Source: a virus (Duplodnaviria; Caudoviricetes). From it: a DNA stretch of 64,000 nucleotides. Under the pieces are notes generated by a model. That model made no database searches. It was not told the DNA's origin and saw only the letters and a program-made list of their open reading frames with translations. The stretch spans positions 116 to 64,115 of IMG/VR virus record IMGVR_UViG_3300028833_001955; one strand, written 5' to 3'. Below are positions 14,208 to 41,151 of the stretch, piece after piece (positions within the stretch are counted from its first letter, which is position 1; the number at the start of each line of letters is the position of its first letter). The position numbers and the translations under genes were made by a program.

Positions 14208-14900
14208 TTATGTGGTTGAATTGTTTTCATTGTCTATTATTTTTGTACATTCTTTTATCCACCATTCTCTAAGTTCTTTCACATGTCTCATTCTATTCAA
14301 GTCAACACTAAACATAAAATCTTCCATTTTCAATAAAATAGATTTATTGTGTCTTGTTGTGATGTACATATCACCAGAACCAACTATTTCTTTAAATTCT
14401 TTCTTAAATTTTTCACATAATTTTGAAAGTTCTGAATCTTCACCAAATTTTATAACCTTATCAATATCTGGAAAAGACTTTTCATCTATTATCACAATAT
14501 AATAATCAGTAAACCCTCTTATATTATTCTCTACGATATCGAGGTCTTTCATAATATGTCTGAGATATTTTATCACAGAATTGTATAGTGTTTCATCAAT
14601 AACCAATCTAAGTCCATATTTTGAAATATTTTGTGACAAAGTTGAATATGTGTAACATAACATGGAGTATTCATTTCCACATTCTATTTCAACACTTTCT
14701 TTGTATTTTTTTGCAGTTTCGGATGAATAAAAAGTACAATTCATGTGTGATAATGTTTTCTGCACTTTATCAAGAAACATTTTTTCATCAAAATTTATCG
14801 GTACTATGACTTTACAACCATCGACATAAAGGTATTTTCCATCTTCGTTTCTTAATGTTTTTTCGAAATATTCGTCTGTTATATTTTTCAAAATACCCAT
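14208..14900 (-). CDS. MGILK-leader protein, family B (no repeats)
   Basis: Starts MGILKNITDEYFEKTLRNED; body aligns by eye with 15742-16461. Confidence 0.75.
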   Translation of the reverse strand: MGILKNITDEYFEKTLRNEDGKYLYVDGCKVIVPINFDEKMFLDKVQKTLSHMNCTFYSSETAKKYKESVEIECGNEYSMLCYTYSTLSQNISKYGLRLVIDETLYNSVIKYLRHIMKDLDIVENNIRGFTDYYIVIIDEKSFPDIDKVIKFGEDSELSKLCEKFKKEFKEIVGSGDMYITTRHNKSILLKMEDFMFSVDLNRMRHVKELREWWIKECTKIIDNENNSTT

Positions 14901-14901
14901 A

Positions 14902-15726
14902 TTATTTCATTTTAGGTTTATATTCGTCTTTTATTGGACAATTATTAAACATATCTTTTGTAAATTTTTCAACTAAATTCCATTCTGATAAATCTCGGTT
15001 GAATGATGTAGCATCATAAAACATATAATTCATATTTGTAACATTTGATACGTCCCAACCATCAATAGGTTGGTTGAATGATGTTGCACCATTAAACATA
15101 TTGGTCATACTTATAACTTTTGATACGTTCCAATTACCAATAGATTGGTTGAATGATGTTGCATATCGAAACATATGACTTATATTTTTAACTTTTGAAA
15201 TATTCCAATCACCTATTGGTTGGTTGAATGATTCTGCATAATAAAACATACCACACATATCTTTAACATTTGAAACATTCCAATTATCAATAGGTTGATT
15301 GAATGATTCTGCACTAAGAAACATACCACTCATATCTTGAACACTACTAACATTCCAATTACCAATAGGTTGGTTGAATGATATAGCATCATAAAACATA
15401 TCACTCATATCTTTAACTTTTGATACGTTCCAACCGGTTATATCCCCGTTGAAAGTACTATATTCTTTAAATAATGCACTCATATTTATAATATCGGAAG
15501 TATCTATATCATTGAAGTCGCCCTCATTACCTCTAACCTCAATCATTCTTTCCAATAATTTTCTTAGATTTTTTAAACCTTTCGGTTTATAACCTCTTTT
15601 ATGAATATTACCATTATTATCGGTAAAAGAAACAATTTCAACATCGAGACCCGTTAAATCTATCTTATCCTCTTCTCTTAATGTCTTACTGAAATATTCG
15701 TCTGTCAATTTTTTAAGTATACCCAT
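14902..15726 (-). CDS. MGILK-leader DUF285/BspA-type repeat protein (7 units)
   Basis: FNQPIGxWxVSxVxxMxxMF repeats and CPIKDEYKPKMK C-cap. Confidence 0.9.
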   Translation of the reverse strand: MGILKKLTDEYFSKTLREEDKIDLTGLDVEIVSFTDNNGNIHKRGYKPKGLKNLRKLLERMIEVRGNEGDFNDIDTSDIINMSALFKEYSTFNGDITGWNVSKVKDMSDMFYDAISFNQPIGNWNVSSVQDMSGMFLSAESFNQPIDNWNVSNVKDMCGMFYYAESFNQPIGDWNISKVKNISHMFRYATSFNQSIGNWNVSKVISMTNMFNGATSFNQPIDGWDVSNVTNMNYMFYDATSFNRDLSEWNLVEKFTKDMFNNCPIKDEYKPKMK

Positions 15727-15741
15727 ATCTATTTCTATTTT

Positions 15742-16461
15742 TTATCCTTCTGAATCATCCTCATCATAATCAAATCCGAAATATGTTCTTGGACCTTGTT
15801 TTTTAATTTCAGACAAAGTATTGTCCCACCATTCAACCATATCTTTTGCATATAAAATTGTTTTAAATTCAATTGGTAAATTAAGTGTGTAATTATAATA
15901 TTTGATTGAATGTAAATCATCTTCGGATATATCTGCCTTTTCTCCAAATTCTTCTATAAAATATTCTATAAGTTCATCATAAGCACTTTGTAATTCAAAT
16001 TCATTCAATTCATCTTCACCACTATATAATGCATCATCTATTCCACCTTCATCAACTAAACAGATATAATCTTTACTTCTTTCGTCATCAATAGGTACAT
16101 CTTCTAAAAGATGTGTGAGTAATTTTATAATCGAGTTGAAAGTTGTTTCATTTGGAATATCTTCAGTTGTTAAATAATTTTCTGATATAATATCCTCATA
16201 TTTTGAGATACAAAGATGATATGAATTACCACACTCGATGTTTATAAATTTACTATTATCTGTTTGTTCATACCAATATTCTGAAACAAATTCAGTAATA
16301 TCGTCGGTATCCAAAACAAGTTCAACGGAATATAAAAAACGTTTTTCATCCCAATCTTGGGGAACAATTACTTCACATCCATGAACTGTAATTTTTTTTC
16401 CATCTTCTTTTCTTACAGTCTCACCGAAATATTCTTCGGTTATAGTTTTAAGTATTCCCAT
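15742..16461 (-). CDS. MGILK-leader protein, family B (no repeats), acidic
   Basis: Starts MGILKTITEEYFGETVRKED. Confidence 0.75.
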   Translation of the reverse strand: MGILKTITEEYFGETVRKEDGKKITVHGCEVIVPQDWDEKRFLYSVELVLDTDDITEFVSEYWYEQTDNSKFINIECGNSYHLCISKYEDIISENYLTTEDIPNETTFNSIIKLLTHLLEDVPIDDERSKDYICLVDEGGIDDALYSGEDELNEFELQSAYDELIEYFIEEFGEKADISEDDLHSIKYYNYTLNLPIEFKTILYAKDMVEWWDNTLSEIKKQGPRTYFGFDYDEDDSEG

Positions 16462-16462
16462 G

Positions 16463-17509
16463 TTATTTCATTTTAGGTTTATATTCGTCTTTTATCGGAC
16501 AATTAAAAAATATATCGCTTGTATATTTTTCAGTTAAATCCCATTTTGATAAATCTTGATTAAATGATGTATCATACTTAAACATAGATTCCATAAATAT
16601 AACTTTTGATACATCCCAATCACCTATTGGTTGGTTGAATGATGTTGCATTATAAAACATACAACTCATATTTTCAACACTACTAACATTCCAATTACCA
16701 ATAGGTTTATTGAATGATATAGCATTATAAAACATATAATTCATATTTATAACTTTTGAAACATTCCAATCACCTATTGGTTGGTTGAATGATAGTGCAT
16801 CACGAAACATCATACACATATATTTAACATTACTAACATTCCATTCACCAATAGGTTGATTGAATGATTTTGCATTATCAAACATATCATTCATATCTGT
16901 AACATTACTAACATCCCATTTTCCAATAGTTTGATTGAATGGTGTACTATAAAACATACGACTCATATCTGTAACCTTTGATACATTCCAATCACCAATA
17001 GGTTGATTGAATGACGTAGCACCATAAAACATATCATTCATATCTGTAACATTACTAACATCCCATTTTCCAATAGGTTGGTTAAATGATTCTGCATTAT
17101 AAAACATACGACTCATATCTGTAACCTTTGATACATTCCAATCACCAATAGGTTGATTAAATGATGTTGCACCATAAAACATATAACTCATATTTTTAAC
17201 ATTTGAAACATCCCAACCAGAAATATCTCCATTAAATCTTTCTTTTTCACTAAATAAAAAAGGCATATCTTCAATATTGGAAGTATCTATATCGTTGAAA
17301 TCACCCTCATCACCCCTCACTTCAATCATTTTTTCCAATAATTTTATTAGATTTTTTAAATCTTTAGGTTTATAACCTCTTCCATGATATTTTTTATTGT
17401 TGTCGGTGAAAGAAACTATTTCAACATCAAGACCCGTTAAATCTATCATGTCTTCTTCTCTTACCGTCTCACCGAAATATTCATTGGTTATAGTTTTAAG
17501 TATTCCCAT
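16463..17509 (-). CDS. MGILK-leader DUF285/BspA-type repeat protein (10 units)
   Basis: 25-aa repeats with an internal duplication of about 50 aa. Confidence 0.9.
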   Translation of the reverse strand: MGILKTITNEYFGETVREEDMIDLTGLDVEIVSFTDNNKKYHGRGYKPKDLKNLIKLLEKMIEVRGDEGDFNDIDTSNIEDMPFLFSEKERFNGDISGWDVSNVKNMSYMFYGATSFNQPIGDWNVSKVTDMSRMFYNAESFNQPIGKWDVSNVTDMNDMFYGATSFNQPIGDWNVSKVTDMSRMFYSTPFNQTIGKWDVSNVTDMNDMFDNAKSFNQPIGEWNVSNVKYMCMMFRDALSFNQPIGDWNVSKVINMNYMFYNAISFNKPIGNWNVSSVENMSCMFYNATSFNQPIGDWDVSKVIFMESMFKYDTSFNQDLSKWDLTEKYTSDIFFNCPIKDEYKPKMK

Positions 17510-17510
17510 A

Positions 17511-18494
17511 TTATTCTATATTAGGTTTCATCTTTGGTTTGTATTCGTCTTTTATTGGACAACCATCAAACATATCTGTTGTATTTTTTTCAACCAAATT
17601 CCATTTTGATAAATCTTGACTAAAAAATGTTGTATAAAAAAACATACGACTCATATCTGTAACATTTGATACGTCCCATTTTCCAATAGGTTGATTGAAT
17701 GATTCTGCACCAGAAAACATATAATTCATATATTTAACATTTGATACGTCCCATTTTCCAATAGGTTGATTGAATGATTCTGCATTATAAAACATACTAT
17801 CCATAGTTGTAACATTTAAAACATTCCAATTACCAATAGGTTGATTGAATGATGTTGCATAAAAAAACATATAACTCATATTTTCAACCCTTGAAACGTC
17901 CCATTTTCCAATAGGTTGGTTGAATGATTCTACAGCATGAAACATAGATTCCATAGTTTTAACGTTTGAAACATCCCAATTACCAATGGGTTGATTAAAT
18001 GATGTATTAAGAAACATATTACTCATATCTGTAACATTTGAAACATCCCAATTACCAATGGGTTGGTTGAATGATGTTGCACCAGAAAACATATAACCCA
18101 TATTCTCAACACTTGAAACGTCCCATTTTCCAATAGGTTGGTTGAATGATGTTGCACCTTTAAACATAAAATTCATATCTTCAACTTTTGATACATTCCA
18201 ACCAGAAATATTACCATTAAATCTTTCTATTTCATAAAATAACGAGTTCATACTTTTAATATTGGAAGTGTCTATATCATTGAAGTCACCATCATTACCT
18301 CTAACCTCAATCATTCTTTTCAATAATTCTTTCAAGTTATCTTTATCTTTAGGTTTATAACCTCTTCCATGATATTTTTTATTGTTGTCGGTGAAAGAAA
18401 CTATTTCAACATCAAGACCCGTTAAATCTATCATGTCTTCTTCTCTTACAGTCTCACCGAAATATTCTTCGGTTATAGTTTTAAGTATTCCCAT
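17511..18494 (-). CDS. MGILK-leader DUF285/BspA-type repeat protein (9 units)
   Basis: Start placed at MGILK (18494) by homology to its paralogues. Confidence 0.9.
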   Translation of the reverse strand: MGILKTITEEYFGETVREEDMIDLTGLDVEIVSFTDNNKKYHGRGYKPKDKDNLKELLKRMIEVRGNDGDFNDIDTSNIKSMNSLFYEIERFNGNISGWNVSKVEDMNFMFKGATSFNQPIGKWDVSSVENMGYMFSGATSFNQPIGNWDVSNVTDMSNMFLNTSFNQPIGNWDVSNVKTMESMFHAVESFNQPIGKWDVSRVENMSYMFFYATSFNQPIGNWNVLNVTTMDSMFYNAESFNQPIGKWDVSNVKYMNYMFSGAESFNQPIGKWDVSNVTDMSRMFFYTTFFSQDLSKWNLVEKNTTDMFDGCPIKDEYKPKMKPNIE

Positions 18495-18498
18495 ATTA

Positions 18499-19419
18499 TT
18501 ACATCTTAGGTTTATATTCATCTTTTATCGGACAATCATCAAACATATCTGTTGTTTCTTTTTCAGTTAAATCCCATTTTGATAAATCTTGATTGAAGGA
18601 TTTTGCACTATTAAACATCCAATTCATACTTTCAACATTTGAAATATCCCAATCACCTATTGGCTGGTTAAACGATGTAGCACCATAAAACATAGCATTC
18701 ATTTTTTTAGCATTTGATACATTCAACTTATTAAGTGGTTGATTGAATGATTCTGTACTATTAAACATACCATCCATATATTGTACTTTGGATGTATCCC
18801 AATTATCAATGGGTTGATTGAATGATATTGCACCATAAAACATATAAGACATACTAAATACGTTTTCTGTTTTCCATGAATTTAGTTTTTTATCAAAATT
18901 ATCACAAGTACTAAACATAAATCCCATAGTTCTTACTTTCGAAACATTCCAATCACCGATGGGTTGGTTAAATACATGGCAACCAGAAAACATTGCATAC
19001 ATGTCCGTCACATTAGATACATCCCATTTTGTTATATCAGAATTAAATGATTCTGCATCACGGAACATAGATTCCATATTTGTAACTTTTGACACATCCC
19101 AACCCGAAATATTTCCGTTGAATGTTTTAAATGGAAGTTTAGTATAGTCTTTTTTCTTACTGTCCCATCTTGAACCAAAAATATATGACATATCTGTAAT
19201 ATTTGACACATCAATGTCGTTTAAGTCGGCATTGTCACCTCTTACCTTTATTAATTTTTCCACCAATTTTTCTAATTTATCATGGTCTCCATCGGGTATA
19301 TAAAAACCATCTTCATGTACGGTCCCATTTTTATCTGTAAATTTATGTCTTTCTATTCCATCTTCTTGTCTTTCAGTTTTACCGAAATATTCGTCGGTTA
19401 TATTTTTTAGAATACCCAT
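18499..19419 (-). CDS. MGILK-leader DUF285/BspA-type repeat protein (8 units, divergent)
   Basis: Leader MGILKNITDEYFGKTERQED; first gene of array 1. Confidence 0.9.
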   Translation of the reverse strand: MGILKNITDEYFGKTERQEDGIERHKFTDKNGTVHEDGFYIPDGDHDKLEKLVEKLIKVRGDNADLNDIDVSNITDMSYIFGSRWDSKKKDYTKLPFKTFNGNISGWDVSKVTNMESMFRDAESFNSDITKWDVSNVTDMYAMFSGCHVFNQPIGDWNVSKVRTMGFMFSTCDNFDKKLNSWKTENVFSMSYMFYGAISFNQPIDNWDTSKVQYMDGMFNSTESFNQPLNKLNVSNAKKMNAMFYGATSFNQPIGDWDISNVESMNWMFNSAKSFNQDLSKWDLTEKETTDMFDDCPIKDEYKPKM

Positions 19420-19443
19420 ATAATATTTATTGTGTTTTTATTA

Positions 19444-19460
19444 TATTTATGCCATAAATA
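19444..19460. promoter_or_regulatory. Back-to-back late-promoter pair TATTTATG-C-CATAAATA
   Basis: Inverted octamers with a 1-nt spacer between divergent genes. Confidence 0.7.
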
Positions 19461-19480
19461 TAGTAAAATACAAATAAAAT

Positions 19481-19750
19481 ATGAGAATTTTAAAACTTCC
19501 AGTGAATGAATATTGGTATAATTTGATTCTTTCTGGAGAGATTACTCACGATTATCGAGAAATAAAACCTTATTGGATAAAACGACTTGAAAATAAAGAA
19601 TATGATATTGTTGAATTTTATCATAGATTTAAAAAAGATATAACACCTATAAGATATAAATTTGAATGGATTAAGAAAGGAAGGCTTGTTAATTACAATA
19701 TGGATGCCTATATAATAAAATTCGGTGAAAAAATAAAAGAGGAACTATAA
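19481..19750 (+). CDS. ASCH-domain-like small protein
   Basis: LKLPVNEYWYNLILSGEITHDYREIKPYWIKRL resembles the ASCH N-terminus (G.K..E.R pattern partly diverged). Confidence 0.6.
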   Translation: MRILKLPVNEYWYNLILSGEITHDYREIKPYWIKRLENKEYDIVEFYHRFKKDITPIRYKFEWIKKGRLVNYNMDAYIIKFGEKIKEEL

Positions 19751-19774
19751 AGTCCCTCTTTTTTTGTTATATTT
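19739..19774 (+). terminator. Imperfect terminator whose T-tract runs into a TTGTTATATTT promoter-like site (19764-19774)
   Basis: GAGGAACT-ataa-AGTCCCTC followed by a T-run. Confidence 0.55.
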
Positions 19775-19779
19775 AGGTT

Positions 19780-20499
19780 ATGGAAAAATATACAGAAGAA
19801 AATCCTTTAAAGGTTTTTACAACATTTTCAGGATATGACAGTCAATGTCTCGCCTTGAAGAAAGCTGGAATCCCTTTTGACCTTGTTGGATGGAGTGAGA
19901 TAGAAAAACGTGCAATTATGGCACACAACGCTTTGTTCCCTGAATACAAGGATAGGAACTATGGTGATATTTGCAAGATAGATTGGGAAAACGTGCCGGA
20001 TTTCGACCTCTTCACATACAGTTCGCCATGCACATCATTTAGTATTGCTGGACAAATGCTCGGTGGTGAAGAAGGTAGTGGTACAAAATCGTCACTTTTG
20101 TGGGAATGCAAGAAAGCTATTGAAATTAAGAAACCGAAATATCTGATGCTTGAAAATGTTAAGATGTTGGTTTCTAATAATTTTATCAACACATTTAAGA
20201 AATGGATTAGTTTTTTGGATTCTCTCGAATATATATCAAAATGGAAGGTTTTGAATGGAAGAGATTATGGAATTCCTCAAGACCGGAGTCGTGTTTTCTT
20301 GGTTTCCATACTCAATCCAGAACAGGATTTTGATTTTCCGAGAGGAAAACCACTTAAAACAACGGTTGAAGATTTTATGCTTACGAAAGCCGAACTCGGT
20401 AAAGAGTTGTATGACAAATTGTGTGTTAAAAAAGAAATAGTTGACAATTATGTGAAATACAATGAGCATTTTTTAAAATTTGCAGTGAAACAAAAGTAA
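19780..20499 (+). CDS. Split C5 DNA methyltransferase, N-terminal catalytic part
   Basis: FTTFSGYDS (motif I variant), SSPCTSFS (IV), LENV (VI) and QDRSRVF (VIII). Confidence 0.88.
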   Translation: MEKYTEENPLKVFTTFSGYDSQCLALKKAGIPFDLVGWSEIEKRAIMAHNALFPEYKDRNYGDICKIDWENVPDFDLFTYSSPCTSFSIAGQMLGGEEGSGTKSSLLWECKKAIEIKKPKYLMLENVKMLVSNNFINTFKKWISFLDSLEYISKWKVLNGRDYGIPQDRSRVFLVSILNPEQDFDFPRGKPLKTTVEDFMLTKAELGKELYDKLCVKKEIVDNYVKYNEHFLKFAVKQK

Positions 20500-20503
20500 T
20501 TAT

Positions 20504-20962
20504 ATGGATGTAAAAAAAGTCAAAAAAGGAAAACAGAATCAATATGTTAACCAAATTGTAAAAGATTATGACGAAGTGTGTATGTGTGGAAAAAATCTTT
20601 TCGGAGAATCAATAGATGATATTGATATTGGAAAAAAAGCACATCTCATACAACTTGGTAATATGAGGGAACAAAGAAAAAATTTCGGAAATCCTCAAGA
20701 TGGACGTGTGTATTCAGCAAAAGGGAGTTGTCCTACATTAACATTGTGTATGCCACTCAAATTTCTCATTGAAGACAACGGTGAATACAAGGTGAGGGAA
20801 CTAAGTGGATTTGAATCAATGAGATTGATGGGTGTTGATGATAATGATATTCAAAAAATAGTTGATGCTGGATTAAGCAATAACCAGTTGACACAATTGG
20901 CTGGAAATAGTATTGTTGTGAATATAATGAGTGAATTTTTTAAAGAAATGATTAAATGTTAA
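20504..20962 (+). CDS. Split C5 DNA methyltransferase, C-terminal part
   Basis: [12 protein letters not shown] (target-recognition-like), ESMRLMG (IX) and QLAGNSIVV (X). Confidence 0.85.
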
Positions 20963-20984
20963 ATTTTTTAAAAATAGAAAAGAA

Positions 20985-21821: not shown

Positions 21822-21832
21822 AAAAAAAATGA

Positions 21833-21870
21833 AAAAACGGTCAGAAATCCTGACCGTTTTTGTTATATTT
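21833..21870 (+). terminator. Intrinsic terminator overlapping TTGTTATATTT (21860-21870)
   Basis: AAAAACGGTCAG-aaatc-CTGACCGTTTTT. Confidence 0.8.
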
Positions 21871-21895
21871 AGTTTAAATGTTTTAATTGTAAAAT

Positions 21896-22504: not shown

Positions 22505-22523
22505 TAAAAAATAATAATTTAAT

Positions 22524-23492: not shown

Positions 23493-23495
23493 AAT

Positions 23496-25460: not shown

Positions 25461-25467
25461 TTTAACT

Positions 25468-27494: not shown

Positions 27495-27505
27495 AAGTGT
27501 TTTTT

Positions 27506-27513: not shown

Positions 27514-27537
27514 AAATATATACAAAGAAAATTAGAT

Positions 27538-30500
27538 ATGACTATAGAAGAATTGTTCAGTAAAGAAGTTGGTGATTATGTTGTGGAGTTAAATAAAAAA
27601 TACCAAAACATAAGTGCTGATGAATTTCGTGACCTTTTAGATGAATTTGTTGATAATCATAAAGTCAATATAATTGAAGAAGAAATTGACTTTGGTTTAA
27701 TAGATGACGATTCTGATGAAGACTCAGATGAAGACTTGGATAAAGAATTGAAAAAAAAATTGGAAAATGACTCCGAGGAAGAATTAGATAAAGAACCAGA
27801 TGAAGAATTAGATAAAGAACCAGATGAAGAGTTAGATAAAGAACCAGATGAAGATAAAAAAGAAGATAAAAGAAAAACTACTATTGTAAAGACTCACGAT
27901 TTAGGCTCTAGAAAATCAGTAAAAACTGTTTTTAGAAGACCAGACTTAGACCCAGACGATGATAGATATGTTCTTAGAAAGGATTCAAAGGGTAGAGTAA
28001 GAAGAAGACCTCTTGTTGATAATTCAAAGGATTCTAAAAGAAATATTCATAAAATTGTAGAAACTTGGTATAATAGATGTATTAAAGAAAAGAATGGTGA
28101 AAATGAAATGGTAGTCACACGACTTAAATATCTTTATACTAGTGAAGTGAAAGACATGTCTGCATTGTTTGCATTTTGTAATGTCCCAAGAATAGATTTG
28201 AGTGAATGGGATACATCAAATGTAGAAAATATGGAAGGTATGTTTTACCGTTCAACTTTCAATAATTCTTCTATCGAAAATTGGGATGTTAGTTCTTGTA
28301 AGAATTTTAAGAATATGTTTGTTGGTAGTAGATTTTCTGGAGACATTAGTAAATGGGTACCGGGTAGTCGAGAAGAGTTTGTTTATGATGATGAGGGGTA
28401 TGTTATTAAAGAAGTAGACCCAAAAACTGGTGAAGAACGTTTAAAGACAAAAAGAGTATTAGCAACCTTACCAAAAGTTGGTGCTCGTTTAACTGAATTG
28501 GAAGTTGAAGGTGATGAAGAAAGAATGGATTTGTTAGATTATGATTATACAGATGAAGATGATGAAGGTGGAGTAAAAGAAAATAAATCAACAAATAAAC
28601 ATATTTTAACGATAGACGAATTTGTAAACGAAGGTTTATATGATAAGATAAAACATGGATTTAAACGTGGTCTTGATATTGTTAAAAAAAGTATTAGAAC
28701 ACTTAAAGTTAAATTGAATGATTTCTTTGTTGTGAATATAAATCCATTTACCGGAACGATAATTAATGCTATTGATATAGATACTACATTGAATTATGTA
28801 AGGGATGAAAATCCGAAAGGTGTTTCTTTGTGTATGAATGGGTTTAATAATGTTGACCTAAGTGACACGAGTAGGTATGGATGGATTAAAAAAGGTTCGG
28901 TTGAAGCAAGAAATTATGTTACATTTATGAATATGTTGTTTGATTCGGATAGTTCAAGTGTGATATCTGAAGCGAAAATTCCTTTAATATCTAAGGGGTC
29001 GGGTCTTGAACTTCCAAATATAACGACTAGTGGACTTATTCGTAAAATTAGAGATGTTATGATTAATACACCTTCAGAAACTGGTAGAAGTACTGCAAGA
29101 ACACTTGTTGTTTATGGTGCTCCTGGTATAGGTAAGACATCTATACCAAAATCAATAATAAAAGAATATAACAGAGAAGTTTCTGCTTATAACGAAACCG
29201 AAGAAGGGAAGAAAAATCCAAAAGGAAAGAAAGCAATAATTGTAATTGAGTGTGGTGATTTGGAACTTGGTGGTTTTAATATCCCAATGCCACAGATGAC
29301 AAATCTTAAAGATGTTGTTTTCTCAAACACCGCTGTAAAAAATAGTTTGATTAGAGGTGGATATACTGATAGTGATTTTGCAGAATGTGAAAAAATATCT
29401 CATATGAGAACATTTGAATCACCAAAAACTTGGTTACCAGTATATTATACGGGTGGAACTAAAGAAGAAAGAGTTGCAGCACAAGCAGTTGCAAATGGTA
29501 GACATATTGAATCAATGGTTTATAACAAAAAGACAAAAAAATTTGATGAAATAATAGAAGAAACAACTGAAGGAGGTATAATCATTTTCGATGAATTTTT
29601 GAGAGCAGACCCAGAATTGTTTAAAACAATATGCCAACTTGTACAAAACAGAACAATCGGACATGGTGAATATAGACTCGGTTCTATGTGGGGTATTATC
29701 TGTTGTTCAAATAGACCTTGTGATGATGATGAGGTGAAAGCACACTATGACCAGCAATCTGTTGCTATGTCAAATCGTTTCTTAGATGGTGCATATAATT
29801 TCGTACCAGATTTTTATGAATGGTTGGATTGGGCAAAGAAGGATGGTCATTTCGATGACTATACGTTAAGTTTTATAGCACAAGATACACCTGGTAATAA
29901 AGAAGAATACACGGTTGGTGAAAAGGGTGGTGAAAAGGATATTACGATATATGCTAACTGGCATAACGCCGATGTTGAGAAATTTTCAAGTGGTGCTGAA
30001 CCGATACCTACGACACCTCGTGGTTGGGCAGCCATTATGGAATGGGTGGAAGACCGTAAAAGAGTAGATGGTGTATCAAGTATTTTTGATATAGATATGA
30101 ATGATTTGAGATTACAAGCATGTGGTGTTATTGGTAGAGAAATTGGAAACGCTTATGTGGATTATATGGAAGACCAAAAAAAATTGGTGTATAGTGGTAA
30201 AAAACCACCAACAAGTAAATTCTTTGAATCGGAGATTCCAGGTGATGAGATAGATGTAAATGCATATAAAGTGAGTGAAGCAATAAAAGACATAGAACAA
30301 TATGTACGAAATAATTTTACGAGAAGTGATATAGAAAGTGCTGATACATCAATAGGAGAATCGTTTCTCATTATGGCAATGAATTTAGATAAATTTTATG
30401 CTAAATCAGTTATGCCAACAGATATAAAAATGTTACATAATAATATAGTGAGAAACATATTCAAGATTAGAAAGGATAAAAAGGATAAAAATATCATTAT

Positions 30501-30570
30501 AAATATGAGACCTTATCTTGAATATATTGGAGACCCCAAAAGATATGATGTTAATTTGCTTGATAGTTAA
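27538..30570 (+). CDS. Multidomain protein: acidic N-terminus, DUF285-type repeats and MoxR-like AAA+ ATPase
   Basis: DLSEWDTSNVENMEGMF repeats; YGAPGIGKT, IIFDEFLRAD, SNRP, MSNRF and TPRGW. Confidence 0.8.
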   Translation: MTIEELFSKEVGDYVVELNKKYQNISADEFRDLLDEFVDNHKVNIIEEEIDFGLIDDDSDEDSDEDLDKELKKKLENDSEEELDKEPDEELDKEPDEELDKEPDEDKKEDKRKTTIVKTHDLGSRKSVKTVFRRPDLDPDDDRYVLRKDSKGRVRRRPLVDNSKDSKRNIHKIVETWYNRCIKEKNGENEMVVTRLKYLYTSEVKDMSALFAFCNVPRIDLSEWDTSNVENMEGMFYRSTFNNSSIENWDVSSCKNFKNMFVGSRFSGDISKWVPGSREEFVYDDEGYVIKEVDPKTGEERLKTKRVLATLPKVGARLTELEVEGDEERMDLLDYDYTDEDDEGGVKENKSTNKHILTIDEFVNEGLYDKIKHGFKRGLDIVKKSIRTLKVKLNDFFVVNINPFTGTIINAIDIDTTLNYVRDENPKGVSLCMNGFNNVDLSDTSRYGWIKKGSVEARNYVTFMNMLFDSDSSSVISEAKIPLISKGSGLELPNITTSGLIRKIRDVMINTPSETGRSTARTLVVYGAPGIGKTSIPKSIIKEYNREVSAYNETEEGKKNPKGKKAIIVIECGDLELGGFNIPMPQMTNLKDVVFSNTAVKNSLIRGGYTDSDFAECEKISHMRTFESPKTWLPVYYTGGTKEERVAAQAVANGRHIESMVYNKKTKKFDEIIEETTEGGIIIFDEFLRADPELFKTICQLVQNRTIGHGEYRLGSMWGIICCSNRPCDDDEVKAHYDQQSVAMSNRFLDGAYNFVPDFYEWLDWAKKDGHFDDYTLSFIAQDTPGNKEEYTVGEKGGEKDITIYANWHNADVEKFSSGAEPIPTTPRGWAAIMEWVEDRKRVDGVSSIFDIDMNDLRLQACGVIGREIGNAYVDYMEDQKKLVYSGKKPPTSKFFESEIPGDEIDVNAYKVSEAIKDIEQYVRNNFTRSDIESADTSIGESFLIMAMNLDKFYAKSVMPTDIKMLHNNIVRNIFKIRKDKKDKNIIINMRPYLEYIGDPKRYDVNLLDS
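27781..27852 (+). repeat. Three tandem 24-bp repeats encoding ELDKEPDE
   Basis: gaattagataaagaaccagatgaa twice, then gagttagataaagaaccagatgaa. Confidence 0.95.
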
Positions 30571-30586
30571 ATATAATATATCTATT

Positions 30587-30632
30587 AAAATGGTTGGAAA
30601 TTTATTTCCAACCATTTTTTTTTACATAAATA
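30587..30632 (+). terminator. Intrinsic terminator followed by CATAAATA (30625-30632)
   Basis: AAAATGGTTGGAAAT-tt-ATTTCCAACCATTTT. Confidence 0.85.
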
Positions 30633-30680
30633 AATTATAAAAAATATTGTTATATGAATGTTATATATAATGACATATAT

Positions 30681-32525: not shown

Positions 32526-32548
32526 AAATACATAAAAATATATAAATT

Positions 32549-34729: not shown

Positions 34730-34730
34730 A

Positions 34731-34760
34731 AAAAGAGAGAGTCAATTGACTCTCTCTTTT
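34731..34760. terminator. Bidirectional terminator (perfect 30-bp palindrome)
   Basis: AAAAGAGAGAGTCAATTGACTCTCTCTTTT between convergent genes. Confidence 0.85.
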
Positions 34761-34769
34761 TATTTTACG

Positions 34770-35627
34770 TTATGTTGTCATGATATACCAAGCACCACTC
34801 ATATCCTTCAATTCCTGTATGATTGCTTCCTTTTCAGCACTACCTTCGTTGGCGATTGCCTCTGCATTGATTGATACATTACCAGGAAGATTGTATGTAA
34901 ATGAGTTGAGTATTCTACCCAATTGGTTCTTGCAGTCTGCAATTACGTATCTTCTAAACATTTCGTCATTATACAAATCACAATCTGGAACTCTCACAAG
35001 AACATCAAGTACAACATCGTCTTTTGGAAGTTCACCAAGGAATCTCAGATTGTTGGTCAGACGGTTGTATCTGAATGAAATCATATTCTGGAATATCTGT
35101 CTAGACATATCCAAGAATGCTTCTGTACAGATGTAGTACATCGTGTTGTCTGCTGATATTGCCATTGTTCTGTCATAGACCGACTGATACACCATTCTGT
35201 GCAACGAAATATCACCGGATGTCTTACCGAGAAGACCCGAGTTCCAACCGGCTTCACCACTCCATCCACCGATTTCATATACACCAACGACTGAAATCAC
35301 ACCCTCGGGTAGTTTATAAGTGCCACGACGGTCTTTCAAAACCTCTTTGTCACCCTCACCTTTCATATTGGCGACACCGTGACCGAACTGTTTCTTCAAT
35401 ATCTCTGTGTGTGGAATTGCAATGAACATTTCTTCATGAGCATCCTCATACATTTTATAGAATAATTGTTTTGCATTTTTGGCAAGCTGTGCTATTGATT
35501 CTCCCGGTATGTTGAAAGGAAGAGAGCAGTTGACTGACATTTCAGATTGAACACTTTCAATAAAATCATTCAAACATTCAACGGCTTCTTCATCCGTACA
35601 ATCCACTAAACTACTTACTTTACTCAT
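34770..35627 (-). CDS. Neck/head-completion protein, gp13-like
   Basis: C-terminal YNLPGNVSINAEAI...EKEAIIQEL resembles T4 gp13; CATAAATA upstream. Confidence 0.65.
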   Translation of the reverse strand: MSKVSSLVDCTDEEAVECLNDFIESVQSEMSVNCSLPFNIPGESIAQLAKNAKQLFYKMYEDAHEEMFIAIPHTEILKKQFGHGVANMKGEGDKEVLKDRRGTYKLPEGVISVVGVYEIGGWSGEAGWNSGLLGKTSGDISLHRMVYQSVYDRTMAISADNTMYYICTEAFLDMSRQIFQNMISFRYNRLTNNLRFLGELPKDDVVLDVLVRVPDCDLYNDEMFRRYVIADCKNQLGRILNSFTYNLPGNVSINAEAIANEGSAEKEAIIQELKDMSGAWYIMTT

Positions 35628-35649
35628 AAAAAATAAAATTTATATATTT

Positions 35650-35674
35650 TATTTATGGATTTTTTGTTATATTT
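35650..35674. promoter_or_regulatory. Divergent pair: CATAAATA (minus, 35650-35657) and TTGTTATATTT (plus, 35664-35674)
   Basis: Same arrangement as at 4637-4661. Confidence 0.65.
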
Positions 35675-35708
35675 ATTTTGTAGTTAAAATAAATAGTATC
35701 TTTATAAA

Positions 35709-36353
35709 ATGAGTATAAAATTATACAACGGAATTAAGTTCAAGTCTAATAAACTCAGTACTGTCATACGACAATTACACTCCCTAAAAGAAGAGTCAAT
35801 AAAGAAAGTACAAGAATCTTTCGAAAATCCAGAATCACGAAATTTTCTAAGTATGTGTATTTTCTATATGATATGTGAAGAAAACGGGGAATCTTTTACT
35901 TATGAAAAAGATGGAAAAAAGATTCCATGTCATTGGATATTCGAAAGAAAATTAAGAGAAAAAATAAGAGAACCCTATTGTAACATTGGGTTTTTTTGTA
36001 AGTTCTCCGTGACTATTTTTGAAAGAAAGAATAAATTATACGGTACATTTTTTGACCAAACAAATAAAAACTATAAACAATTGTTTGATAAAGATATTGC
36101 TGTTGATTATCACTATCAAAATCAGACGGATAAACCAGATGAAATATCTTGGAGAGATTGGCGGTTTAGAGAAAAGGTTTGGGAAGATATTTTTGACGAT
36201 ATTTCTGTTTTATGGATTTCATCCGAAGCAGGTGTAGTATATAATATTGTTACAGAAGATGATATCAATATCTCAAAAGAAATATTTGAAAAAGTAATAG
36301 AAAAATGTAAAGAATTAAAAGAAAAGAAAAAGGAGAAATCTGATGAACAATGA
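35709..36353 (+). CDS. Hypothetical protein
   Basis: 214-aa ORF; includes DYHYQNQTD and WRFREKVW segments. Confidence 0.65.
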   Translation: MSIKLYNGIKFKSNKLSTVIRQLHSLKEESIKKVQESFENPESRNFLSMCIFYMICEENGESFTYEKDGKKIPCHWIFERKLREKIREPYCNIGFFCKFSVTIFERKNKLYGTFFDQTNKNYKQLFDKDIAVDYHYQNQTDKPDEISWRDWRFREKVWEDIFDDISVLWISSEAGVVYNIVTEDDINISKEIFEKVIEKCKELKEKKKEKSDEQ

Positions 36354-36843
36354 CATATACGAAAATTTAACTATTTGTGAGATTCTTGAAATGGCCAAAA
36401 AGATGCTTCTGTATAATTCAGCATATTTTGACACTGATGTTGACCAGACCCATTATCAGTACTTTATTTGGCAGACAAGGAAAAAAATATCAGATATAAT
36501 GCTGAATGTGGACACACCTATTTTTCAAGTCACATACGACGCTTTGATTCATCGGACATCTTATCTGAATTATGTTTACAAAACCGTAGACTCCTATGGT
36601 CTCACTCCACACGAACTGAATATGAAACGGGAGGAAAAAATGGAAGAGGAGGAAAAGAGATTCAAAGATGTTCCCGTTTCTGGTTATGACGATTTCGGAA
36701 TTGTAAAATTCAATATAAATATGACAATAGAAAAAACAAGTATCGAGTGTTTACGTAATTATGTTGCTTCCGGTGGAAATATTTCCGCTTTTCTTTGGTA
36801 TGATTTCACAAATAATAATAAAATTCCTATAATAACTTGGTAA
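36343..36843 (+). CDS. Hypothetical protein
   Basis: 166-aa ORF overlapping the upstream stop. Confidence 0.6.
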   Translation: MNNDIYENLTICEILEMAKKMLLYNSAYFDTDVDQTHYQYFIWQTRKKISDIMLNVDTPIFQVTYDALIHRTSYLNYVYKTVDSYGLTPHELNMKREEKMEEEEKRFKDVPVSGYDDFGIVKFNINMTIEKTSIECLRNYVASGGNISAFLWYDFTNNNKIPIITW

Positions 36844-36844
36844 A

Positions 36845-37468
36845 ATGAAGATAGCGATTGATATTGATGGTGTTCTACGTAATAGTGTAGAGACTATGTT
36901 ACGTATTTATAATCAAAATTTTAACGATAATATGACAGAAGATGAGTGGAAGTTTTATTCGGTAAAAGAAACCTTTCCACAAATAGAAGAAAAATTGGGT
37001 ATAACCGCCCATGATTTTTTCTTCTCAAGACATAATGGTGAACAAGTAAATAGGTACTCGGATACATATCCAGGTGTGATTGAGGCAATGCAGAAAGTCC
37101 ACGACGAAGGACATTCGTTGCACATCATAACATATCAGCCGTCATACAAAAATAAGTTGCATACACTTATGTGGCTTGAAGATACTAGGATTCCTTATGA
37201 CACAGTTACATTCTGCACCAAGAGGGCGAAGAATTTACCTGATGTTGATGTTATTATAGATGACAATCCAATATATTTTCAAAATGTAAATGCTGACCGC
37301 TGTATTCTCATTAACAGACCATATAACAAGGATATGGAACAATATTCTTGTGTTGACACCGGTGAATATGTATATACCAAGCACGGAAAGACAAAGATAG
37401 AAAGATTCGATTCGATTGTAGATTTTTTCGAAACTTTGGAACCTTGTGAAGAAAAAAAATTGTTCTAA
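36845..37468 (+). CDS. HAD-family 5'(3')-deoxyribonucleotidase (NT5C-like)
   Basis: IAIDIDGVL, IIT, K and IIDDNP motifs. Confidence 0.85.
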   Translation: MKIAIDIDGVLRNSVETMLRIYNQNFNDNMTEDEWKFYSVKETFPQIEEKLGITAHDFFFSRHNGEQVNRYSDTYPGVIEAMQKVHDEGHSLHIITYQPSYKNKLHTLMWLEDTRIPYDTVTFCTKRAKNLPDVDVIIDDNPIYFQNVNADRCILINRPYNKDMEQYSCVDTGEYVYTKHGKTKIERFDSIVDFFETLEPCEEKKLF

Positions 37469-37470
37469 AA

Positions 37471-37500
37471 AAAAAGGATGGAAGAATTTCCATCCTTTTT
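37471..37500. terminator. Bidirectional terminator
   Basis: AAAAAGGATGGAA-gaat-TTCCATCCTTTTT. Confidence 0.85.
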
Positions 37501-37501
37501 C

Positions 37502-38101
37502 TTATTTATCTTCATCTTCATTTTTGGCGTTATGCCACCATTTTGGATAGTCTTTATGGTTTCCCTCATAACTTGAATCACAGAACATAAGTCGAACATC
37601 TGTATCCGTCTGTACATCCCATCCAGATATGTCACCATTTGTACCGGAAAATTCAGACCCCATAAACATTTGATACATATTTTTTACATGTTGAACATTC
37701 CATTTGGATAAATTACCATTAAATCTTGAATTTAAAAACATTCTTTCCATGTTTTCGACATTAGATACGTTCCAACCAGATATATCACCATTGAAACTAG
37801 AATTTGGTGGTGTAGAAAAGTAACCAGGATAGTCATAATCAATTCCAAACAATTCTGTCATGTCATCAATATTTGAAACATCTATGTCGTTCAAGTCACA
37901 TTTATTTCCACGTCTTTTTATCAATTCATGTATGAGTTCTCTTAAAAGAAAAATACTCCCATTTGGAATATAATATCCAATATGTTCATTTCCGTTATTA
38001 TCTGTGAATCTCTTTCTTTCAATTCCCTTAATATCAATTTTGTCTTCCTCTCTTTCAGTCTCACCGAAATATTCTTCAGTTATGGTTTTAAGTATTCCCA
38101 T
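37502..38101 (-). CDS. MGILK-leader DUF285-type protein (about 3 divergent units)
   Basis: Start placed at MGILK by homology; FNGDISGWNVSNV repeats; distinct C-cap. Confidence 0.85.
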   Translation of the reverse strand: MGILKTITEEYFGETEREEDKIDIKGIERKRFTDNNGNEHIGYYIPNGSIFLLRELIHELIKRRGNKCDLNDIDVSNIDDMTELFGIDYDYPGYFSTPPNSSFNGDISGWNVSNVENMERMFLNSRFNGNLSKWNVQHVKNMYQMFMGSEFSGTNGDISGWDVQTDTDVRLMFCDSSYEGNHKDYPKWWHNAKNEDEDK

Positions 38102-38121
38102 ATTATCCAATTTTTATTTTC

Positions 38122-38898
38122 TTAGAAAAATCCAAAGGTGTTATTTTTTGAGTTTTTTGGTCTATATTCGTCTTTTATGGGACAAATTTTAAACATACCC
38201 ATCATACTTGTAACGTTTGATACATTCCAATTACCAATAGGTTGGTTGAATGATTCTGCATTAAGAAACATAAATCCCATATTTTCTACTTTCGAAACAT
38301 CCCAATCACCAATAGGTTGGTTGAATGATTTTGCTCCAGCAAACATAGAATACATATTTTCAACATTACTAACATCCCAATTACCAATAGGTTGGTTGAA
38401 TGATTTTGCACCATGAAACATAGATTCCATAATTGTAACTTTTGAAACGTCCCATTTTCCAATAGGTTGGTTAAATGATTCTGCATAATAAAACATACTA
38501 TTCATTCTTTTAACACCACTAACATCCCAATTACCAATAGGTTTATTGAATGATGTTGCACATTCAAACATATACTCCATATTTGTAACTTTTGAAACAT
38601 TCCAACCAGAAATATTACCATTAAATTTTTCTTTTTTATGAAATAAATAACACATATCTTTAATATCGGAAGTATCAATATCATTGAAGTTACCCTCATT
38701 ACCTCTAACCTCAATCATTCTTTCCAATAATTCTCTTAAGCTACCTGTATCTTTAGGTTTATATCCTTTTTTATGAAATATTTTATTATTGTCGGTGAAA
38801 GAAACTATTTTAACATCAAGACCTTTTATGTCTATATCGTCTTCTTTTCTTATTGTTTCACCGAAATATTCTTTAGTTATAGTTTTTAAAATACCCAT
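38122..38898 (-). CDS. MGILK-leader DUF285/BspA-type repeat protein (6 units)
   Basis: Repeats plus CPIKDEYRPK. Confidence 0.9.
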   Translation of the reverse strand: MGILKTITKEYFGETIRKEDDIDIKGLDVKIVSFTDNNKIFHKKGYKPKDTGSLRELLERMIEVRGNEGNFNDIDTSDIKDMCYLFHKKEKFNGNISGWNVSKVTNMEYMFECATSFNKPIGNWDVSGVKRMNSMFYYAESFNQPIGKWDVSKVTIMESMFHGAKSFNQPIGNWDVSNVENMYSMFAGAKSFNQPIGDWDVSKVENMGFMFLNAESFNQPIGNWNVSNVTSMMGMFKICPIKDEYRPKNSKNNTFGFF

Positions 38899-38902
38899 AT
38901 TA

Positions 38903-39646
38903 TTACATCTTAGGTTTATATTCGTCTTTTATCGGACAATCAAAAAATATTTCGAATGTATCTTTTTCAGTTAAATCCCATTTTGATAAATTTTGATTGA
39001 ATGATGTTGTACTAGAAAACATACGCTCCATAAATTCAACATTACTAACGTCCCAATTACCTATTGGTTGATTGAATGATTTTGCATTATTAAACATATT
39101 ATACATATTTGTAACTTTTGAAACATTCCAATTACCTATTGGTTGGTTGAATGATTTTGCATCACGAAACATAAACTTCATATCTGTAACTTTTGAAACA
39201 TCCCATTTTCCAATAGGTTGGTTGAATGATGTTGCACCAGAAAACATAAAACTCATATTCTCAACACTTGAAACGTCCCATTTTCCAATAGGTTGGTTGA
39301 ATGATGTTGCACCTTTAAACATAAAATTCATATCTTCAACTTTTGATACATTCCAACCAGAAATATTACCATTAAATCTTTCTTCTCTATAAAATAAAAG
39401 AGACATATCTTCAATATATGAAGTGTCTATATCATTGAAGTCACCCTCGTAACCTCTTTTCTCAATCATTCTTTTCAATAATTCTTTTAAATCTTCATCT
39501 TTCGGTTTATAACCTCTTCCATGATATTTTTTATTATTGTCTATAAAAGAAACTATTTCAACATCGAGACCAGTTAAATCTATTTCATCTTCTTCTCTTA
39601 CCGTCTCACCGAAATATTCATCGGTTATAGTTTTAAGTATTCCCAT
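38903..39646 (-). CDS. MGILK-leader DUF285/BspA-type repeat protein (6 units)
   Basis: Repeats plus CPIKDEYKPKM. Confidence 0.9.
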   Translation of the reverse strand: MGILKTITDEYFGETVREEDEIDLTGLDVEIVSFIDNNKKYHGRGYKPKDEDLKELLKRMIEKRGYEGDFNDIDTSYIEDMSLLFYREERFNGNISGWNVSKVEDMNFMFKGATSFNQPIGKWDVSSVENMSFMFSGATSFNQPIGKWDVSKVTDMKFMFRDAKSFNQPIGNWNVSKVTNMYNMFNNAKSFNQPIGNWDVSNVEFMERMFSSTTSFNQNLSKWDLTEKDTFEIFFDCPIKDEYKPKM

Positions 39647-39647
39647 A

Positions 39648-40400
39648 TTATTTCATCTTTGGTTTATATTCTTTTTTGATAGGACAATTAATAAATATAT
39701 CATTTATATATGTAACTTTTGAAACATCCCAATTACTAATAGGTTGATTGAATGATGTTGCATTAAAAAACATATAACCCATATTTATTACTTTAGAAAC
39801 ATTCCATTTTCCTATTGGTTGGTTGAATGATTTTGCATTAGAAAACATATAACTCATATCTTTAACACTTGAAACGTCCCAATCACCTATTGGTTGGTTG
39901 AATGATTTTGCACCAGAAAACATATAACTCATATCTTTAACACTTGAAACGTCCCAATCACCTATTGGCTGGTTAAACGATGTAGCACCAATAAACATAT
40001 GATTCATATTTTTAACTTTTAAAACATTCCAATTACCTATTGGCTGGTTAAACGATGTAGCACCATAAAACATACCATCCATATATATAACATTTGAAAC
40101 ATCCCAACCGGTTATATCACCATTGAATGCTTCATTATAGTTAAATAAATAACACATATCTGTAATATCTGAAGTATCTATATCGTTGAAATCACCCTCA
40201 TCACCCCTCACTTCAATCATTTTTTCCAATAATTTTTTTAAATTAATTTTATCTTTAGGTTTATAACCTTTTCCATGATATTTTTTATTGTTGTCGGTGA
40301 AAGAAACTATTTCAACATCAAGACTCGTTAAATCTATCATGTCTTCTTCTCTTACAGTCTCATCGAAATATTCTTCTGTTATAGTTTTAAGTATTCCCAT
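39648..40400 (-). CDS. MGILK-leader DUF285/BspA-type repeat protein (6 units)
   Basis: Repeats plus CPIKKEYKPKMK. Confidence 0.9.
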   Translation of the reverse strand: MGILKTITEEYFDETVREEDMIDLTSLDVEIVSFTDNNKKYHGKGYKPKDKINLKKLLEKMIEVRGDEGDFNDIDTSDITDMCYLFNYNEAFNGDITGWDVSNVIYMDGMFYGATSFNQPIGNWNVLKVKNMNHMFIGATSFNQPIGDWDVSSVKDMSYMFSGAKSFNQPIGDWDVSSVKDMSYMFSNAKSFNQPIGKWNVSKVINMGYMFFNATSFNQPISNWDVSKVTYINDIFINCPIKKEYKPKMK

Positions 40401-40404
40401 ACTA

Positions 40405-41151
40405 TTACATCTTTGGTTTATATTCGTCTTTTATTGGACAATTATCAAACATGCTTGCTGTATACTTTCCATTTAAATTCCATTTTGATAAATCTTGGTT
40501 GAAAGATTTTGCGTTCTCAAACATATGACTCATATTTTTAACACGTGAAACAACCCATTTTCCAATAGGTTGGTTGAAAGATTCTGCATTAAGAAACATA
40601 CCACTCAAATTTGTAACTTTTAATACTTTCCAATCACCTATTGGTTGGTTGAAAGATTCTGCATTAAGAAACATACCACTCAAATTTGTAACTTTTAATA
40701 CTTTCCAATCACCTATTGGTTGGTTGAATGATTTTGCATCACTAAACATATATTTCATATTTTTAACATTTGAAACGTCCCAATTACATATTGATTGATT
40801 GAATGATACTGCATCTTTAAACATATAACTCATATCTTCAACACTTGAAACACTCCAACCAGAAATATCCCCGTTGAACGTTTCATTGTTTTCAAATAAC
40901 GATTTCATATCTTCAATATCAGAAGTATCTATATCATTGAAGTCACCCTCATCTCCTCTCACTTTAATCATTTTTTCCAATAATTTTTTTAAATTATTTT
41001 TATCTTTCGGTTTATATCCTCTTCTATAGATATTTCCATTATTATCTGTAAATGAAACTATTTCAACATCAAGACCTTCTATGTTTATTATATCTTCTTC
41101 TCTTACCGTCTCACCGAAATATTCTTCTGTTATAGTTTTAAGTATTCCCAT
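40405..41151 (-). CDS. MGILK-leader DUF285/BspA-type repeat protein (6 units)
   Basis: First gene of array 2; contains an exact 75-bp duplication. Confidence 0.9.
   Translation of the reverse strand: MGILKTITEEYFGETVREEDIINIEGLDVEIVSFTDNNGNIYRRGYKPKDKNNLKKLLEKMIKVRGDEGDFNDIDTSDIEDMKSLFENNETFNGDISGWSVSSVEDMSYMFKDAVSFNQSICNWDVSNVKNMKYMFSDAKSFNQPIGDWKVLKVTNLSGMFLNAESFNQPIGDWKVLKVTNLSGMFLNAESFNQPIGKWVVSRVKNMSHMFENAKSFNQDLSKWNLNGKYTASMFDNCPIKDEYKPKM
40568..40728. repeat. Exact 75-bp tandem duplication (one repeat unit)
   Basis: Copies start at 40568 and 40643 and encode FNQPIGDWKVLKVTNLSGMFLNAES twice. Confidence 0.95.

Follow-up and report, generated by a model that had tools for sequence, protein, structure and literature searches.

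Two gene arrays in a virus genome fragment raise the question why proteins with unrelated bodies should begin with the same peptide, and what this peptide may do. The fragment is a stretch of 64,000 nucleotides (positions 116 to 64,115 of the IMG/VR virus record IMGVR_UViG_3300028833_001955; Duplodnaviria, Caudoviricetes), here called the window, and makes up nearly the whole of a 64,115-base virus contig. Six genes at 14208-19419 (array 1) and five genes at 37502-41151 (array 2), all on the minus strand, encode proteins that start with MGILK-x-[IL]-T-x-EYF-xxxx-R-x-ED. In the work presented here we show that this leader is modular, strictly N-terminal, under selection at the level of the peptide and located outside the predicted folds of the proteins that carry it. 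Regarding its role, our analysis leads us to give about an even chance to a T4-like capsid-targeting tag on a varied set of cargo proteins.

The leader is a separable N-terminal module

The eleven genes were recovered as an initial annotation, made from the sequence alone, had described them, namely with one N-terminal leader, packed 1-20 nt apart and without a signal peptide or transmembrane segment. The gaps between neighbouring genes measure 1, 15, 1, 1 and 4 nt in array 1 and 20, 4, 1 and 4 nt in array 2. For two of the genes, the longest open reading frames (ORFs) begin slightly upstream (18521 and 38110) of the conserved starts at 18494 and 38101. The encoded proteins are 199-348 aa long; ten of them are acidic (net charge -5 to -41) and one is neutral. 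None of the eleven contains a hydrophobic segment, with no 19-residue window above a Kyte-Doolittle mean of 0.72, and the leaders themselves are hydrophilic, with a mean hydropathy of -0.6 to -1.1 over residues 1-20. A signal peptide or lipoprotein signal is ruled out by these hydropathy values. Eukaryote-type N-myristoylation (M-G-x-x-x-T) was also considered and rejected, since position 6 is not conserved, and since the phage has a T4-type head and its relatives by capsid protein have bacteria as hosts.

Behind the leader, nine of the window proteins carry repeats of the DUF285 type and two carry a different body, referred to as the odd body. The profiles of the two families (A1, 16 odd-body sequences; A2, 24 DUF285 sequences) were aligned by hhalign, which detected homology in residues 1-29 only, with 72% identity. 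Common descent of the whole proteins is therefore rejected, as homology ends at about residue 29. The leaders have a mean identity of 82% when all 55 gene pairs are taken and of 80% when one family is compared with the other, and residues 21-95 of the DUF285 paralogues have a mean identity of 60%. AlphaFold2 predicted both bodies with confidence (pLDDT 86.2 and 88.8, pTM 0.83). In both families residues 1-20 obtained a pLDDT of 43-64 and formed only a short helix at about residues 4-11; the fold sets in at about residue 22 in the odd body and at about residue 29 in the DUF285 protein. The initial annotation had named a leader that is an integral part of both folds as the observation that would speak against a separable tag. 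In the models the leader lies outside the fold of both families, thus this objection does not apply.

Selection on the peptide and the junctions between the genes

Among 27 leader genes of the window and its relatives, the invariant residues are encoded by varied synonymous codons: Gly2 by GGT or GGA, Ile3 by ATT or ATA, Leu4 by five codons, Thr8 by three, and Asp20 by GAT or GAC. Thus, selection acts on the peptide and not on the DNA, and conservation at the DNA level only is ruled out.

The junction between two array genes was observed to be a conserved DNA unit of about 100 nt (e.g. 14860-14940), which comprises the end of one gene, encoding a CPIKDEYKPKM(K) tail, the stop codon, 1-4 nt and the next leader. 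This arrangement is well suited to unequal crossing-over and to translational coupling. The shared 5' end might then be a recombination or translation cassette without any peptide function, spread by unequal crossing-over, with new bodies plugged into a coupled operon. Such a cassette would fit with the conservation of the junction as a unit up to the ATG, the A-rich start region, the abutting genes without a Shine-Dalgarno sequence and an array content that varies at syntenic sites between relatives. However, synonymous codons vary freely at the invariant residues. Genes that come first in an operon or stand alone, and have no upstream junction, retain the leader too, and it persists across clusters with widely diverged DNA. 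We regard this explanation as very improbable.

Distribution of the leader and probable turnover of the candidate cargo

A degenerate DNA pattern of the leader detected arrays in four IMG/VR contigs of 85-194 kb, and a looser pattern added a 363-kb contig (G005, 96% complete by CheckV) and two short contigs. The leader is shared far more widely than chance would allow: in five related records, the 363-kb contig included, the pattern gave 36 matches forward and 0 when read backwards. In the 363-kb relative, 16 leader matches are distributed over about eight loci.

As called for in the initial annotation, a profile of the leader (32 columns) was searched against proteins at large. Among 1.84 billion representative proteins, 109 protein clusters were retrieved at E <= 0.001. 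The match begins at residue 1 in 104 of these clusters, and in the other five at residues 3-24 of the called protein, mostly behind an upstream start codon. The consensus reads M-G-[IV]-L-K-x-[LI]-T-x-E-Y-F-G-x-x-x-R-x-E-[DE], and conservation collapses past residue 20. T8, E10, Y11, F12 and R17 are invariant and E19 is present in 106 of the 109 clusters, and position 9 is occupied by D in 53, by E in 26 and by K in 12 of them. A literature search for the leader string returned only unrelated papers, and no usable hit came from the protein atlas.

The 86 bodies of at least 80 aa fall into eight groups that are not linked by BLAST, namely the odd body (26 clusters), DUF285 (25), a group of about 190 aa (13) and five smaller ones. 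Ten proteins from the six other groups were scanned, and no Pfam or PHROG family scored above threshold; faint lectin-like matches (Lcl_C and Fib_succ_major, E 0.016-0.07) were obtained for one group. The leader is thus a portable module, as had been proposed: it is found on at least eight unrelated bodies in the 109 clusters, nearly always at residue 1, and outside both predicted folds.

In the relative G003, a third type of body (397 aa) carries the leader as the product of a single gene beside thioredoxin and NrdG-like genes. The 363-kb relative also has leader genes at the site syntenic with array 1, and these carry different bodies. The capsid protein of the closest relative is 99% identical to that of the window, but the DNA over the array 2 genes and the adjoining flank is 88-91% identical. 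Both the different bodies at the syntenic site and the divergence of the array 2 DNA suggest that the cargo set turns over fast.

The bodies behind the leader

Pfam and alignment agree with the nine DUF285-type and two unrelated bodies of the initial annotation. A scan of eight of the nine repeat genes gave matches to DUF285 (PF03382) with E values of 8e-21 to 4e-134 (74-440 bits, cut-off 25), and the ninth (38903-39646) was assigned by alignment, on the basis of 44-80% identity to other DUF285 proteins in A2. Each gene encodes about 2-10 repeat units, and a C-terminal cap, CPIKDEYKPKM(K), is conserved in seven of the nine. The description of the family as a library of repeat binders is too narrow, as DUF285 is one of at least eight cargo types. 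A fold search with the DUF285 model, a monomeric solenoid, returned weak leucine-rich repeat (LRR) rows only (best E 0.09), with surface LRR adhesins as the weak top matches.

For the two odd-body genes (14208-14900 and 15742-16461), neither Pfam nor PHROG gave a family; beyond the leader, their products share 29% identity. For the body of 15742-16461, 37 metagenome homologues were found, and all 14 that were aligned with the two window genes retain the leader; tblastn against 50,697 phage records gave no match. The odd body is confidently predicted as a globular alpha/beta fold of repeated hairpin-helix units. Searches with this model in the PDB (Foldseek), in PDB representatives (VIA-align, best Z 4.6) and in viral predicted structures returned nothing convincing. 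The protein encoded at 15742-16461 has a net charge of -41 on its 239 aa and might conceivably act in the manner of a DNA mimic.

DUF285 units also occur in the window without the MGILK leader. A late 1010-aa protein (27538-30570) contains about three of them (PF03382, E 2e-16) together with an AAA+ region, which gave weak AAA_5 and STAND-type matches. Two genes come after it: the product of one faintly matches an HNH endonuclease family and a putative metallopeptidase domain, and the other encodes a 726-aa protein.

The neighbourhood of the arrays and the nature of the bodies bear on the possibility that the leader is a docking peptide for the exterior of the particle, i.e. the tail fibre, the baseplate or the capsid surface, where it would anchor changeable small binders. 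Array 1 lies directly upstream, on the same strand, of a collagen-like tail-fibre-like gene, and in a relative a baseplate-hub-like gene (L001) comes just before an array. The adhesin-like and lectin-like matches mentioned above point in the same direction, and a late-type promoter is compatible with any structural role. On the other hand, the bodies are small, probably monomeric and without fibre-like or trimeric features, and one of them is the alpha/beta protein with a charge of -41. Furthermore, the leader genes are scattered in the 363-kb relative, the copy in G003 has thioredoxin and NrdG-like genes as its neighbours, and eight unrelated bodies exceed what would be expected for receptor binders. 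Taken together, a role in docking to the exterior seems quite unlikely to us.

Promoter-like motifs and timing of expression

A sequence motif had been noted in front of each array, and the presence of CATAAATA at both positions was confirmed (Table 1). CATAAATA occurs 22 times in the window versus 7.9 expected, an excess of about threefold that was reached in 0 of 100 shuffles, and in most cases the site is followed by a start codon at a distance of 24-39 nt. It precedes the genes for sheath, tube, portal, protease, capsid, adaptor and fibre as well as both arrays. Among ten leader genes examined in relatives, five have the motif within 60 nt upstream. In T4 the late promoter is TATAAATA, the first T of which is poorly conserved in T4-like phages (PMC1524935).

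A second motif, TTGTTATATTTA, is found 8 times versus 2.4 expected and never before the arrays. Five of the copies are exact. Four of these stand before a thymidylate-synthase-like gene, a gene bearing sequence hallmarks of DNA methyltransferases and two function-unassigned genes, and the fifth is located inside a TTG-start ORF (41185-41925), 5 nt before an internal ATG at 41221. In three cases TTGTTATATTTA ends only 4-5 nt before the ATG. Its placement suggests that the TTGTTATATTTA genes give rise to leaderless or near-leaderless early or middle transcripts. Late expression of the arrays, which had been assumed from the start, can reasonably be inferred in as much as they share CATAAATA with structural genes and the DNA-metabolism genes have a different motif.

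Table 1. Leader genes, promoter-like motifs and head and tail genes of the window referred to in the text
Feature	Coordinates	Strand	Remark
Leader + alpha/beta body of no known family, 230 aa, net charge -5	14208..14900	-
Leader + DUF285 solenoid body, 274 aa	14902..15726	-	Pfam E 1.7e-73
Leader + very acidic alpha/beta body of no known family, 239 aa, net charge -41	15742..16461	-
Leader + DUF285 body, 348 aa, about 9-10 repeat units	16463..17509	-	Pfam E 4e-134
Leader + DUF285 body, 327 aa; ORF open to 18521, conserved start 18494	17511..18494	-	Pfam
Array 1 first gene: leader + divergent N-cap + DUF285, 306 aa	18499..19419	-	Pfam
Array 2 last gene: leader + short DUF285 body, 199 aa	37502..38101	-	Pfam E 8e-21
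Leader + DUF285 body, 258 aa	38122..38898	-	Pfam
Leader + DUF285 body, 247 aa; source gene of AlphaFold2 model	38903..39646	-	Alignment A2
Leader + DUF285 body, 250 aa	39648..40400	-	Pfam
Array 2 first gene: leader + DUF285, 248 aa	40405..41151	-	Pfam
CATAAATA late-promoter-like motif	19444..19451	-	First base 32 nt upstream of array 1 first ATG
CATAAATA late-promoter-like motif	41170..41177	-	First base 26 nt upstream of array 2 first ATG
TTGTTATATTTA promoter-like motif, five exact copies	4651, 19764, 21860, 35664, 41204	+
Collagen-like tail-fibre-like gene, directly downstream of array 1	12473..14182	-	Own CATAAATA at 14205-14212
Prohead protease, T4 gp21 family (Peptidase_S77), with long coiled-coil scaffold-like tail, 670 aa	59952..61964	+
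Major capsid protein, gp23 family	62834..64000	+	Truncated by window end

A phage with a T4-type head

The window has a G+C content of about 30-37% and contains the gene set of a contractile-tail phage, with sheath, tube, portal, head-tail adaptor and a tail-fibre-like protein. No tRNA genes were found in it, and the genes discussed here read through without stops in the standard genetic code. The closest portal and capsid genes are those of uncultured 460-735-kb phages (LR756500: 46% and 42% identity, respectively) and of Prevotella Lak megaphages. The remaining capsid relatives are phages of Bacteroidota hosts, save two Sphingomonas phages, and the host is probably a member of the Bacteroidota.

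Pfam matches identify a gp21-type protease (Peptidase_S77, 39.9 bits, cut-off 27) and a gp23-type capsid protein (Gp23, 65.9 bits, cut-off 24.4). In the protease, the S77 domain at about residues 30-175 is followed by a tail of 470 residues with coiled-coil-like repeats of about 14 residues (HQDYIAENCNKMIE-like) and about ten Y-[LI]-[AV]-E motifs. With the repeats judged by eye, this tail looks like a scaffold with T4-type cut sites, which would be cut into small pieces. The protein is a candidate for being both the enzyme and the docking platform of the leader. A complex prediction of the leader region (residues 1-70, A2) with the protease-scaffold protein (A4) gave a score of 0.00, which counts neither for nor against binding. 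The N-terminus of the capsid protein contains ILNE and FITE, with LINE and IIE as their counterparts in LR756500. Capsid N-termini of close relatives are too alike to place the maturation cut, and the comparison with LR756500 leaves two conserved [LI]-x-E candidates.

Several further proteins of this phage group deserve mention. Between the protease and the capsid gene, i.e. in the slot of the T4 scaffold, 61999-62682 encodes a 227-aa protein with a hydrophobic, membrane-like N-terminus that is conserved in G003 and G005. G005 encodes a protein with the T4-like N-terminus MIKNFEEFINE (L027:1-764, minus strand), the gene of which comes directly behind that of the membrane-like head-module protein and near the capsid gene. 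Seven other proteins of the window form a second candidate capsid-targeting class with more T4-like tags, in which M and 5-9 further residues lead up to a hydrophobic residue and [ILV]-x-E, with the motif starting at residues 7-10. Their genes start at 2462, 2837 (minus strand), 3455 (minus strand), 32549, 42570 (minus strand), 44803 and 50212, several of them behind CATAAATA, and the tags are FINE, FITE, YLLE, DLLE, FINE, FLQE and VLNE, within residues 8-13; about 1.2 would be expected by chance, as estimated from frequencies. One of the seven (3455-4615, minus strand) is a late protein with a match to the MATCAP/DUF1704 carboxypeptidase family (PF08014, E 2e-16) and with YLLE at residues 10-13.

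A possible capsid-targeting tag and its alternatives

If the leader is a capsid-targeting tag of the T4 kind, the leader proteins would be made late, alongside the structural proteins. The flexible tag would dock the cargo on the core of the assembling prohead, probably on the scaffold-like tail of the gp21-type protease. The docked cargo would be enclosed in the capsid, and the tag would possibly be trimmed afterwards by the same protease. DUF285 solenoids, the very acidic alpha/beta protein and at least six other types of body would then be delivered into the host together with the DNA and take effect as infection begins.

When the leader is set in register with the T4 tag MKTYQEFIAE, which has a single gp21 cut (PMC8442874), its position 7 is hydrophobic and its position 10 is Glu. 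In six of the eleven window genes, [LI]7-T8 is followed by E9, giving the tripeptide LTE or ITE as in T4 Alt, the cut sites of which are ITE-6 and LTE-619 (PMC5694885), and FITE is present in the N-terminus of the phage's own capsid protein. We infer docking, packaging, cleavage, ejection and any anti-defence role. In view of these likenesses, of the scaffold-like tail of the protease and of the precedents in T4 and SPN3US, we propose that the proteins dock to the prohead core and are enclosed in the capsid, that the tag may be trimmed, and that the cargo is delivered with the DNA.

Several observations weigh against a T4-like tag. Family-wide, Glu at position 9 is variable and present in only 26 of the 109 clusters, therefore the canonical [LI]-x-E cut is not conserved; the cut after ITE or EE put forward in the initial annotation is weakened by this count and by the 53 clusters with D. 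A cut after the invariant E10 would place Thr at P3, a residue that T4-type proteases are not known to accept in this position. Conservation runs beyond any such cut (Y11, F12, R17, E19, D20), unlike in the 10-residue T4 tag. The window proteins, ten acidic and one neutral, stand against the highly basic internal proteins (IPs) of T4 (PMC8442874). Finally, the arrays adjoin tail-fibre and baseplate genes, not head genes. The N-termini of some other late proteins encoded in the window come closer to the T4 tag (F-I-x-E, positions 8-11), so that the MGILK tag could address a different site.

Along these lines, the leader might not be a gp21-type capsid-targeting sequence but direct proteins into a second sorting route of Lak-related huge phages, beside the F-I-x-E tags, e.g. 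for loading onto the tail or baseplate or for hand-over to an AAA+ protein. We consider this unlikely; if true, two separate tags would serve two protein destinations in one phage.

The conservation of all 20 residues, with no stop at a cut site, and the acidic cargo unlike the T4 IPs would also fit with an intracellular handle without any role in the particle, such as a signal for AAA+ recognition or timed degradation or for sorting to sites of replication or assembly. A flexible, strictly N-terminal peptide with an amphipathic helix resembles N-terminal recognition tags, and the window encodes a ClpC-like unfoldase and the DUF285-AAA+ fusion described above; the ClpC-like or MoxR-like proteins of the window would be possible partners. 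Nevertheless, there is no precedent for a single tag on 11-16 late phage proteins to such an end, the promoter motif is common to structural genes, and the likeness of [LI]-T-E to T4 cut sites favours packaging, as does the T4-type head module. An intracellular handle is thus rather unlikely in our view.

Should the leader be a loading signal, as the capsid-targeting reading implies, proteins carried into the cell by uncultured huge phages would become readable from sequence alone. The set would comprise 11 genes in this 64-kb piece, 16 matches in the 363-kb relative and more than 100 public clusters, nearly all function-unassigned, and would constitute a catalogue of candidate early-acting effectors, e.g. 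counter-defence proteins. The leader would also offer a 20-residue handle to load foreign proteins into such particles.

Comparison with known systems

Phages with branched tail-fibre sets have multiple receptor-binding proteins, which share a conserved N-terminal anchor and form trimeric fibres or spikes. The window proteins are similar in that one conserved N-terminus precedes many variable C-terminal bodies, encoded in tandem and near tail genes. However, the bodies here consist of small solenoids and globular proteins, and some of the genes lie dispersed.

When compared with bacterial BspA-like LRR surface proteins, nine of the window bodies are clear DUF285 members with a variable number of units of about 25 residues. 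They differ in lacking a signal peptide, lipobox and anchor, and in carrying a cytoplasmic-type hydrophilic leader that is also present on non-DUF285 proteins. An expanded set of 38 DUF285 genes is known from the giant algal virus Kratosvirus quantuckense (PMC10720644); the DUF285 family of the window has likewise been expanded by tandem duplication.

The propeptides of phiKZ, 201phi2-1 and SPN3US (PMC5694885) also come from huge phages, with many extra proteins in the head and a protease that cuts after Glu in a short motif. The paralogous ejection proteins gp53 and gp54 of SPN3US have diverged, yet their 15 N-terminal residues are identical (PMC5694885), which is reminiscent of the leader. 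In contrast, the propeptides are often longer than 100 residues, are cut at A/S/G-x-E and belong to another clade. The proteins that share N-termini there are paralogues, whereas here the tag is found on unrelated folds.

The closest parallel to the proposed function is the capsid-targeting sequence (CTS) of T4, which was reportedly treated by Mullaney and Black in 1996. The CTS of IPI, IPII and IPIII, which are internal proteins, and of Alt is removed by the prohead protease gp21 (PMC3012670, PMC8442874, PMC12373910), and in Ip1-3 an N-terminal leader is the sole common feature and directs packaging (PMC12373910; PMC3012670). Likewise, a short leader is the sole likeness among otherwise unrelated, non-essential-looking window proteins. 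It is located at the extreme N-terminus (in 104 of the 109 clusters) and at loci that vary between relatives, its arrays in the window stand behind a late-promoter-like motif, and genes of the gp21-type protease and the gp23-type capsid protein are present. The leader has no sequence homology to MKTYQEFIAE, the agreement seen on inspection being limited to positions 1, 7 (hydrophobic) and 10 (Glu); it is therefore an analogue and not a member by descent. It has 20 conserved residues instead of about 10, and its cargo in the window is acidic and larger (199-348 aa), whereas that of T4 is small and basic. Moreover, the leader occurs on 11-16 genes per genome with at least eight families of bodies, probably in phages of Bacteroidota. 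If it is a loading signal, the principle of the T4 internal proteins would have been reinvented with a different sequence and for a much larger acidic cargo, including repeat-protein binders. As this principle is already known from T4, the advance would lie in scale, type of cargo and lineage rather than in kind.

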